From: a virus | Lineage: Duplodnaviria; Heunggongvirae; Uroviricota; Caudoviricetes | Reading direction: 5' to 3' (one strand) | DNA length: 64,000 nt | IMG/VR virus record: IMGVR_UViG_647533160_000003 | Shown here: piece after piece, positions 53,318 to 55,314 of the stretch | Numbering within the stretch: the stretch's first letter is position 1 | Layout of the letters: each line of letters opens with the position of its first letter | Notes under the pieces: generated by a model | Database searches by the model: none | Seen by the model: the letters and a program-made list of their open reading frames with translations, nothing else | Told to the model about the DNA's origin: nothing | Position numbers and translations under genes: made by a program

Positions 53318-54075
53318 TTGAGGTGCTGCTTGGCACCTCTTTCTATAGGTTCCCTAATGCTCTACAAATATATTGGAAGTGAAGATTCGCAAAAAGTGTT
53401 ACGTAACCTCAAACGGTTTGTAGAGGACGGCACTATCTCTGCTAGCGCACCTTCTTCATTCAACGACCCATCAGAGTTCAAAGTTTCGATAACGATGGGA
53501 GGTACAGAAGTGGAGCGCCGGAAACACTTTGAAGACAATGGATGTAAGGATTTTTCCTTTGAAGACTGGGATGCTGTAGCTCCTGAAGCTGCAAAATCGT
53601 TGGCTGTGGATTTGCGGAAAGAATCATTAGGGGCTTTTGGTGTGGTGTGCTTGTCACCAAACGAAGATAACATCTTGATGTGGTCACATTACTCAGTGTC
53701 GCATAAAGGTTTCTGCATAGGCTTTGATGATGATTTTGTTACCTCTATTGAGGGGTATCACAGCTTTGATAATGTGAAATATATACCTTCTGTTCCCGTG
53801 TTCGATGAAGTTACAGATGAGTTTAAGGTACTTTTTGATAAGCTCTTTTTCTACAAGCACGAATGCTGGAAATATGAGGAAGAACAAAGGGTTATTACTA
53901 AAAAATAGGCGCTCAGGCATTTGATAAGAAATATATTAGAGAGATCATTCTTGGGTATAACGTTTCTCCTGAAGTAGAAGAATATGCCCGGACACAGCTA
54001 GACACGAGCATCGAGGTTTACAAAATGAGTACACCTGATGATGGTTATCTTCTTGTCAAAGAAAAGCTGAAGTAG
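53318..54075 (+). pseudogene. Hypothetical protein gene split by frameshift at A6 homopolymer (53901-53906); motif pattern reminiscent of DUF2971-type proteins
   Basis: ORF 53318-53908 ends just after run 'actaaaaaatag'; a second frame (open 53902-54075) continues a plausible C-terminus; adding one A restores a single ORF; motifs LYKY, FNDPSEF, MWSHYS. Confidence 0.5.
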
Positions 54076-54141
54076 CTCCAGACTTTCCTCAAATGATTAT
54101 GTTGGGCGCTTTTCTTATTGAACTGGTTAGTGAGGCTAATA

Positions 54142-55314
54142 ATGGATTTGTTCTCAACCAAAATAGCAAAAAACAAGCTGCACGAATCTTTTAAACAGAT
54201 TTATCAAGATAATACATATGCTCCAGTAAGAGAAGTGATACAGTCGTGGGGGCGTGGGTTACTGGAGCGTAGCGGTGAGCAGACTAAATTCGTTAAAGAG
54301 TTTCAGACAACCTTCAATTCCGCCTTATGGGAATTGTATCTGAACGAAATGTTTATTCGTCTCGATTATTCTGTCGACTACACAAAAGACAGTCCCGATT
54401 TCTGTGTTACTACACCGTCAGGCTACCAGTTTAACGTCGAAGCTGTGATATCAGATCGGCCACATAATCCACCTGCAGGTGCTCTTTTTAGCGAATCAAA
54501 ATTCAAACATCAATCAACGCTAAAATTAATCGGAAAAATCAAAGACAAACATGATCTTTTTACAGGAGTTAATGGCAAAAAATTCCCGTACTCTACGATG
54601 TCTCATGTAGTTAATAAGCCGTTTGTTCTGGCGCTTGCACCCTTTGACTCCGATTTATCATTGTCTCAAAATAACACAATCATCAATCGAGTGTTGTTTG
54701 GCATTGAGGAACCTACCACCAGAAATTTGGTGACTGGCAGCCAAACTAAAGTTACCTCAATCAAAAAGAATGAAGACGTTGAAATTCCATTAGGTATATT
54801 TACTAACGACTCATATAAAGAAATAAGTGCGGTTATTTTCTCCACCACCGGCACTTTTGGAAAAGCCGTGGTTCAAAGCGGTATCGGTAGATATGTAAGG
54901 TCAACACGATATCGAGCCATTGATGTGAATGATTTCATCGCCAATGAAGGGATGAAAAACGAGGGAAAGCACACACAAAGGATAGGACCTGATCATTTCA
55001 TCACTACATATCGGCATTTTTTAAATAACGAAGTCACTGGTGCGGATATTGTAGTTTGCCATTCCACTGCTCATGAAGAGACGCACTTTGACGGCCTTCA
55101 TATTTACTACAATCCTTTTGCGACAGTGCCACTGGACAGAAATATTTTCTTCCCCCCAGAGATAACTCATAATTTTTACGATATGGAAAAAGAACAGTCT
55201 GTTCAGAATCATCCTGATGGAGCGCTGGTATCTAGACAGGTTTTTGAACCAACTAGAGCACATTTTAGGTATATCATGAAACATTGGTTTCCAGGCTTTC
55301 TAAAAGATGTTTAA
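54142..55314 (+). CDS. Hypothetical protein (391 aa)
   Basis: ATG 54142 with GAGG RBS (track ORF begins at 54118 TTG); followed by palindromic element copy 2. Confidence 0.5.
   Translation: MDLFSTKIAKNKLHESFKQIYQDNTYAPVREVIQSWGRGLLERSGEQTKFVKEFQTTFNSALWELYLNEMFIRLDYSVDYTKDSPDFCVTTPSGYQFNVEAVISDRPHNPPAGALFSESKFKHQSTLKLIGKIKDKHDLFTGVNGKKFPYSTMSHVVNKPFVLALAPFDSDLSLSQNNTIINRVLFGIEEPTTRNLVTGSQTKVTSIKKNEDVEIPLGIFTNDSYKEISAVIFSTTGTFGKAVVQSGIGRYVRSTRYRAIDVNDFIANEGMKNEGKHTQRIGPDHFITTYRHFLNNEVTGADIVVCHSTAHEETHFDGLHIYYNPFATVPLDRNIFFPPEITHNFYDMEKEQSVQNHPDGALVSRQVFEPTRAHFRYIMKHWFPGFLKDV

Follow-up and report, generated by a model that had tools for sequence, protein, structure and literature searches.

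Which genes does a phage-plasmid keep between its partition and its replication module, and what might they do there? The question arises from a 64,000-nucleotide stretch of the virus record IMGVR_UViG_647533160_000003 (called the window here, at its full length), in which a preliminary description made from the letters alone had pointed to a two-gene cassette at 53318-55314 as an inserted accessory locus, possibly for abortive infection or defence. By sequence comparison, the element that carries it is an Escherichia coli SSU5/pSLy3-like phage-plasmid. An alignment of window positions 47357-59908 with L003 (GG749333.1, assembly GCA_000163195.1) showed 100% identity with no shift in coordinates, which makes the window the first 64 kb of this 114.6-kb contig. 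Among annotated sequences, the closest are E. coli plasmids of ~110 kb, such as pEc2-51408, and the phages CMS-2020a, PhiR41_1, Cyrano and SSU5; hundreds of ~110-kb plasmids are related to the element. We consider it probable that the cassette occupies a cargo slot, holds two anti-phage genes acting independently of each other and is closed by a long-stem terminator.

The interval 53313-55336 appears, from the comparison of relatives, to be a sharply bordered defence-type cargo slot of SSU5-like phage-plasmids. It is flanked on the left by the stop codon at 53312, which ends the gene after parA, and on the right by ACCTGCTTCTGTATA, and similarity to relatives with other cargo stops at 53308-53320 and restarts at 55327-55339. 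PLSDB plasmids were searched, a carrier being defined by a match to at least 80% of the query, and 13 out of 721 flank-sharing plasmids were found to carry the cassette. When the query was reduced to the cassette, 408 plasmids matched, 397 of them solely over the hairpin region at 55327-55447. Given this low occurrence, and since the slot elsewhere holds other defence-type genes, the cassette is accessory cargo and not core. The comparison of the parA-to-helicase interval, recommended in the preliminary description, thus gave no sign of core proteins present in all relatives, and the idea of an inserted defence locus gained support from it, from the other cargo and from the identity of the second gene. 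The shift towards A and T was also reproduced: the GC fraction is 0.401 in the cassette, versus 0.483 in the parA operon, 0.478 in the replication genes and 0.456 in the window.

What the slot holds varies among relatives. Its commonest cargo is a DUF2971/PDC-S31 gene alone, found in about half of 42 two-flank hits in a spread sample, and SSU5 itself has DUF2971 plus small open reading frames (ORFs). Elsewhere the slot contains a PD-T7-5-like gene alone (Cronobacter, Salmonella and Enterobacter), a minus-strand GIY-YIG gene resembling PD-T4-3 (PhiR41_1 type), a KAP NTPase matching PDC-S49 or an IS100 insertion. In E. coli and Klebsiella phage-plasmids it encodes, on the minus strand, a phrog_22329 protein of 352 amino acids (aa) (L009:1474-2532 and L013:1470-2528), which had no Pfam or PADLOC match and is, by its position, a candidate for an unknown defence gene. 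A literature search found no description of this slot. It resembles the P2/P4-type defence hotspots of phages and satellites, and moron loci, in its fixed sharp borders, mutually exclusive defence cargo, GC below that of the backbone and terminal terminator; it differs from them in its place on a phage-plasmid, with partition genes on one side and the replication module on the other.

Gene 2 (54142-55314, plus strand) is classed by its profile match as an intact, full-length member of the PD-T7-5 family of defence proteins. Its frame in the ORF list spans 54118-55314 (a 398-aa ORF), with an ATG start at 54142 that gives a product of 390 aa. The PADLOC profile PD-T7-5 (PDLC04110) matched with an E value of 1.5e-139 and 462.9 bits, over residues 9-379 of the 398-aa ORF and positions 1-342 of the 346 in the profile, while the PADLOC PD-T7-1 profile gave a weaker match (E 1.8e-42). 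A member of a named defence system thus takes the place of what had been described as a 391-aa protein of unknown function. Among E. coli carriers, four out of five single nucleotide polymorphisms (SNPs) in gene 2 are synonymous. The predicted fold comprises an N-terminal PD-(D/E)xK nuclease-like domain and a beta-rich C-terminal domain without a fold match. Gene 2 has no Pfam domain, and when 62 PD-T7-5 homologues were compared with Pfam, with E values up to 1 allowed, no nuclease and no AbiGii domain emerged, the hits being scattered noise (Peptidase_M1 and DUF6591, five members each). A profile search against PDB sequences returned nothing useful for the PD-T7-5 family or for the DUF2971 family.

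PD-T7-5 was obtained by functional selection from E. coli UMB0934 (Vassallo 2022, Nat Microbiol; PMC9519451, Table S2). The original (protein RRM82777.1) is a single ORF (RRWJ01000050, 27110-28283), labelled 'Nuclease' and cloned with 143 bp of upstream sequence, and protection against T7 has been published for the UMB0934 allele only (PMC9519451). In a 2025 preprint that used DefenseFinder, PD-T7-5 was already one of the systems recorded for the clade J SSU5-group phage-plasmids that occur in E. coli and Shigella. Gene 2 is like the published system in its full-length match to the hidden Markov model (HMM), its 390 aa, its E. coli host, its layout (one ORF preceded by a short upstream region) and its tentative prediction as a nuclease, as well as in the group of elements on which the system had been detected. 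It differs in that, here and in many relatives, a gene resembling ADP-ribosyltransferases (ART-like) precedes it, a partner that the published accounts of PD-T7-5 that we found omit.

Gene 2 probably has a promoter of its own inside the 3' end of gene 1, within its last ~135 bp. This stretch upstream of PD-T7-5 was retained wherever the DUF2971 gene had been deleted, and the published clone worked with an upstream region of comparable length. Promoter-like sites upstream of gene 2, at 53921-53948 and 53999-54026, are weak consensus matches; the promoter scan produced 5 sites versus 7.7 expected in shuffles, and these calls carry little weight for that reason.

Gene 1 contains the motifs LYKY, FNDPSEF and MWSHYS, as reported before, and the DUF2971 family suggested by them was recovered by the HMM search: Pfam DUF2971 (PF11185) scored 30.7 bits, above the gathering cut-off of 22 bits (E 8e-7), and PADLOC PDC-S31 matched with an E value of 2.6e-32 over profile positions 8-200 of 259 only. 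In the ORF list its frame runs from 53318 to 53908 (196 aa), where the TTG at 53318 lies inside a hairpin; the real start is the ATG at 53357. From this ATG the 5' part of the gene (53357-53908, plus strand) extends for 183 codons to a premature TAG at 53906. The 3' part follows out of frame at 53905-54075 on the same strand, with 56 codons (IGAQAFDKKYIREIILG...KEKLK) identical in translation to residues 184-239 of the intact WP_080852155.1. The two genes proposed for the cassette do exist as ORFs, but a one-nucleotide deletion leaves the first with 183 aa in place of the 239 aa of the intact product, so that it is not an intact protein of 196 aa. The frameshift had been overlooked, as had the standing of gene 2 as a named defence system.

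All the motifs retained in gene 1 precede the frameshift: Y3-K4-Y5, N36-D37-P38, W109-S-H-Y112 and Y173-E174-x-E176-x-R178. The lost tail, residues 184-239, comprises four strands and a helix of the structure model, the conserved IxEIILG segment and the invariant G200; gene 1 therefore lacks the complete ORF expected of a DUF2971/PDC-S31 gene. The model, built for an intact relative 99% identical to gene 1, has a mean predicted local distance difference test score (pLDDT) of 94.9 and gives gene 1 a DarT-like ART fold, in agreement with a published bioinformatic study that placed DUF2971 in the ART superfamily, close to DarT and AbiGi (PMC12522546). At the sequence level, no DarT family matched gene 1 in Pfam at E values up to 0.1, and a family profile had no match among PDB sequences. 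A DarG macrodomain antitoxin is absent beside gene 1, whose neighbours (a 119-aa gene and PD-T7-5) had no macro domain match. Gene 1 thus departs from DarTG in lacking an adjacent DarG and a sequence-level DarT match, and in having large helical inserts.

Within the DUF2971 family, Aristaios from Lactococcus is a validated single-gene abortive-infection system that blocks phage transcription (PMC11381338, PMC13064643). Gene 1 shares with PDC-S31, DUF2971 and Aristaios the DUF2971 domain, the conserved motifs, the predicted ART fold, a length of ~240 aa and the character of a plasmid- or phage-borne single-gene defence candidate. It differs from PDC-S31/DUF2971 by the frameshift and the loss of its last 56 residues, including the IxEIILG strand; Aristaios, in turn, has 316 aa and a Gram-positive host, and is likened to gene 1 by family and description. 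PDC-S31 is itself a candidate, for which we found no published phenotype in the literature.

The frameshift in gene 1 coincides with a homopolymer, A6 at 53900-53905 (plus strand), as located by alignment to L001 and seven other carriers. Over 53300-55450 (2,151 bp) the window and pEc2-51408 differ at a single place, A7 having become A6, and A7 is present in seven out of seven other aligned carriers from complete plasmids. A6 was found a second time in an unrelated assembly (JANGON010000015.1), on a haplotype that differs by 5 SNPs and is closest to that of pEc-JB2-4, an A7 carrier. The tract also occurs as A8: the corresponding product (P0261) has 189 aa and ends in ...ITKKNRRSGI, as one extra A predicts, and the 11 contigs that encode it have their own gene 2 variant in common. 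Such a shared variant fits an inherited mutation and argues that the tract truly varies in nature; from these alleles, the A-tract is taken to be a real mutational hot spot. An apparent A6 in L004 was rejected, being merely the end of a contig. Programmed −1 frameshifting on A6, by which a P-site Lys slip at the TAG would restore TKKIGAQ, is an unsupported idea that we did not adopt. An independent lesion was seen in NRZ96606/L018 (NZ_OZ501614.1), where the DUF2971 gene has an in-frame deletion of 30 bp at the window equivalent of 53538-53567. Gene 2 is intact in all the A6, A8 and 30-bp-deletion carriers.

The right border of the slot is a conserved long hairpin with a stem of ~20 bp followed by a T-run (TCTTTTT; 55337-55401, plus strand). 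As RNA, 55337-55394 folds with −34.9 kcal/mol (z = −4.4), a value equalled by 0 of 200 shuffles. The hairpin proposed earlier as the downstream bound is thus real, but it is not private to the cassette, being the slot border in ~400-720 plasmids; whatever the cargo, ~165 bp are preserved between the palindrome's left arm, exactly where similarity sets in, and the beginning of the following gene. Across 13 sequences the stem is kept, with 15 predicted pairs, three broken cells, one compensatory change and variation mostly of the U.G type. Because U.G wobbles pair only in plus-strand RNA and a T-run follows, a plus-strand terminator is the simplest reading, and the hairpin is most likely the intrinsic terminator of a par-cargo unit before the replication genes. 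A symmetric protein site at the DNA level is the less likely reading, since the consistent T.G asymmetry fits plus-strand RNA pairing better. An Rfam search of 51900-56400 at E values up to 1 returned two sub-threshold chance hits, none of them for the hairpin.

At the left edge, the terminator scan detected a small GC-rich hairpin with TTTCT (53320-53345, plus strand), 12 nucleotides before the ATG of gene 1. Together with the first ~24 nucleotides of DUF2971 it is conserved in other DUF2971-bearing relatives (similarity up to 53380), and it probably acts as a leaky terminator, or as an attenuator, that separates the par operon from the cargo. As the ATG lies just past this hairpin, gene 1 would have to be read through from the par operon.

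Taken together, these features suggest the following mechanism. The slot would sit at the 3' end of the partition operon, with the conserved long-stem terminator ahead of the replication genes. The predicted PD-(D/E)xK-like domain of gene 2 would most likely cut the nucleic acid of superinfecting phages, and an intact gene 1 would most likely ADP-ribosylate nucleic acid and abort the infection. In the present copy, gene 1 would be switched off by the one-nucleotide contraction of a hypermutable A7 tract. Both genes are predicted to be expressed in the plasmid or lysogenic state, where they would shield the host and the resident phage-plasmid from other phages.

The relationship between the two genes was approached through the neighbourhoods of gene 2 homologues. 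In many close PD-T7-5 relatives (56-80% identity), the gene is immediately preceded, at a distance of 41-86 bp, by an ART-like gene in the same orientation. DUF2971 precedes PD-T7-5 in two phage-plasmid versions that have diverged (54% and 76% identity), and AbiGi (PF10899) precedes a PD-T7-5-like gene in a monophyletic clade spread over five contexts (a Proteus prophage, Yersinia prophages, a McrA-like-adjacent locus and two others). Three loci with PD-T7-5 'alone', in two phage-plasmids and one P4-like satellite, retain a 3' remnant of DUF2971. Overall, the 13 close PD-T7-5 lineages comprise seven that are paired, three that were formerly paired and three without trace of a partner. The association of ART-like genes with PD-T7-5 is therefore old and not random.

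Two kinds of loci seen in this survey deserve description in their own right. The AbiGi-family gene (225-242 aa), a spacer of 65-86 bp and the PD-T7-5-like gene form a mobile two-gene cassette (L022:5187-7176, L106:3249-5182, L111:1749-3673, L113:200-2123 and L114:1740-3673), located in Proteus and Yersinia prophages and in three metagenomic contexts. The DUF2971 remnants consist of the last 30-50 codons directly upstream of the PD-T7-5-like gene (L008:1442-1540, L108:2798-2932 and L105:2859-3014); those of Cronobacter and Enterobacter have identical deletion end points, and one remnant adjoins smpB in the P4-like satellite.

These neighbourhoods bear on whether the genes merely travel together or form one cooperative abortive-infection module, in which the ART-like partner would sense infection, regulate the PD-T7-5-type nuclease or widen its range. 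Lactococcal AbiG, a comparable arrangement, has an AbiGi of ~249 aa and an AbiGii of ~397 aa, close to the adjacent ~240 and ~390 aa seen here. The ART-like family of gene 1 is related to AbiGi, close PD-T7-5 relatives are actually paired with AbiGi-family genes, and AbiGi is described, in the literature that we consulted, only as half of the two-gene AbiG system (PMC13064643). The recurrent same-strand pairing, the second pairing in the diverged phage-plasmid and the remnants at 'alone' loci all favour cooperation. However, gene 1 had no AbiGi match and gene 2 no AbiGii match in Pfam and PADLOC, and AbiGii lacks a recognised fold (PMC13064643), in contrast to the predicted PD-(D/E)xK-like domain of gene 2. 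Cloned by itself, PD-T7-5 was active, and where DUF2971 has been deleted or frameshifted it remains intact and conserved in length, which an obligate pair would not predict; the partner thus appears dispensable. DUF2971 alone is, moreover, the commonest cargo of the slot. At 79 genome loci of distant homologues, neither a DUF2971 nor an AbiGi neighbour was found with a local DUF2971 HMM and an AbiGi phmmer search, the latter of low sensitivity for remote AbiGi, and clustering of the neighbours revealed no family common to more than seven loci. On balance we favour, with fair confidence, two separately acting genes that travel together, and regard a cooperative AbiG-like module as a minority reading that is rather unlikely. 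A bolder version of it is similarly doubtful: that an ART-like (DUF2971/AbiGi) gene and a PD-T7-5 nuclease form an undescribed AbiG-like module, with an ART partner that is costly and is toggled by A6/A7/A8 slippage (phase variation) or lost by recurrent deletion, the nuclease persisting alone, and the slot serving as a dedicated hotspot bordered by a palindrome that also lies at phage genome ends.

The position of the cassette directly after the par operon raises a different possibility, that it is a plasmid-maintenance (addiction) module whose gene 1 toxin kills cells that lose the phage-plasmid. The predicted ART fold of gene 1 is that of the DarT toxin, and relatives have toxin-antitoxin genes near parA (Cyrano has KacT and its antitoxin, L011 a DUF1778 gene). 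No antitoxin candidate accompanies gene 1, however; the family of gene 2 was selected experimentally for phage defence, other cargos of the slot are defence-type nucleases and NTPases, and the supposed toxin is frequently broken without loss of the element, so that addiction seems very improbable. Far more weight belongs to the proposal that the frameshift is an assembly artefact and that gene 1 is intact in the real element, everything else being as in our explanation. GCA_000163195.1 is presumably an older draft assembly (~2010), and homopolymer miscalls are typical of pyrosequencing, which was used for many assemblies of that period. The sole difference from pEc2-51408 is that very base, complete plasmids carry A7, and the 183-aa form was found on only 4 contigs versus hundreds for the intact forms. 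Against an artefact stand the second A6 haplotype and the A8 allele with its own gene 2 variant; we hold it to be a serious possibility, though the less probable one.

Several points nonetheless weigh against the explanation of an expressed pair of independent defence genes closed by a terminator. The A6 tract, in what we take to be a 2010 draft, could be a homopolymer sequencing error, to which we assign about one third. In close relatives, PD-T7-5 has an ART-like gene, or what is left of one, in front of it far more frequently than random stacking would lead one to expect, which argues for some functional link. Finally, the palindrome recurs at 21400-21457, this time with no clear T-run, between a phrog_900 gene and a terminase small-subunit-like gene, just upstream of the terminases; a search with the arm pattern gave four matches versus 0.25 expected. 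The SSU5 record ends at window position 21438 and the Cyrano record starts at 21440, inside this copy; either a connection with a cos or pac site or a mere convention for linearising deposited genomes could account for this. Its place at the ends of deposited phage genomes suggests that the hairpin may do more than terminate transcription.

The genes around the slot are conserved. On its left, parA (52285-52953, plus strand) encodes the partition ATPase, with Pfam matches to AAA_31, MipZ, CbiA and ParA and a match to the ParA-like phrog_164 (E 2e-51). The 119-aa gene that follows (52953-53312, plus strand) matches phrog_5111 (E 4.5e-80), has no Pfam match and is presumed, from its position, to encode the partition partner of ParA. 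In phage Cyrano this gene carries the label 'RelE/ParE putative toxin', which looks like a mis-annotation, since the gene has no Pfam match and its position and conservation fit a small ParA partner. Upstream of parA lies a terminator-like hairpin with a T-run (52128-52157, plus strand; a stem of 8 bp with five GC pairs, then TTTGTTATTA). The preliminary description had taken it for the upstream bound of the cassette and so misjudged its position: it closes the unit preceding parA and is no border of the cassette, whose left limit is the stop codon at 53312.

On the right, the long hairpin is followed by a conserved non-coding leader of the replication module (55402-55502, plus strand), which contains TCCCTTCCGTTTCCACTTCCAAAAAC ... 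TAAGTAAGTAACTACCTA and had no Rfam match, and then by a phrog_2500 gene, a DnaB-like helicase and a primase. Identity across genera is 93-97% over 55327-55447, compared with 79-85% for the flanking genes.

The stretch from the lysis genes to parA (window 50947-52122) is also variable and may be a second cargo slot. Here it holds two unknown genes (phrog_2594 and phrog_3307); Cyrano has the KacT toxin and its antitoxin there on the opposite strand (L006:467-1301), and a gene for a DUF1778 antitoxin is present in a further E. coli plasmid (L011:1-65).

Both genes of the cassette belong to catalogued families that standard defence finders would label, and PD-T7-5 has already been reported from the SSU5 group. 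The new details are modest: a length-variable A-tract frameshift, recurrent decay of an ART-like gene beside an intact PD-T7-5, a sharply bordered slot and a duplicated palindrome. SSU5-like phage-plasmids are, however, common in clinical E. coli, Shigella, Salmonella and Klebsiella, and interchangeable anti-phage genes in such a slot would help to predict which strains resist therapeutic or typing phages. The slot also offers a defined place to seek unknown defence genes, such as the 352-aa phrog_22329 cargo. The broken ART-like gene beside an intact PD-T7-5, with its variable A-tract, makes a small testable case of an abortive-infection toxin that either decays because of its cost or is switched on and off.

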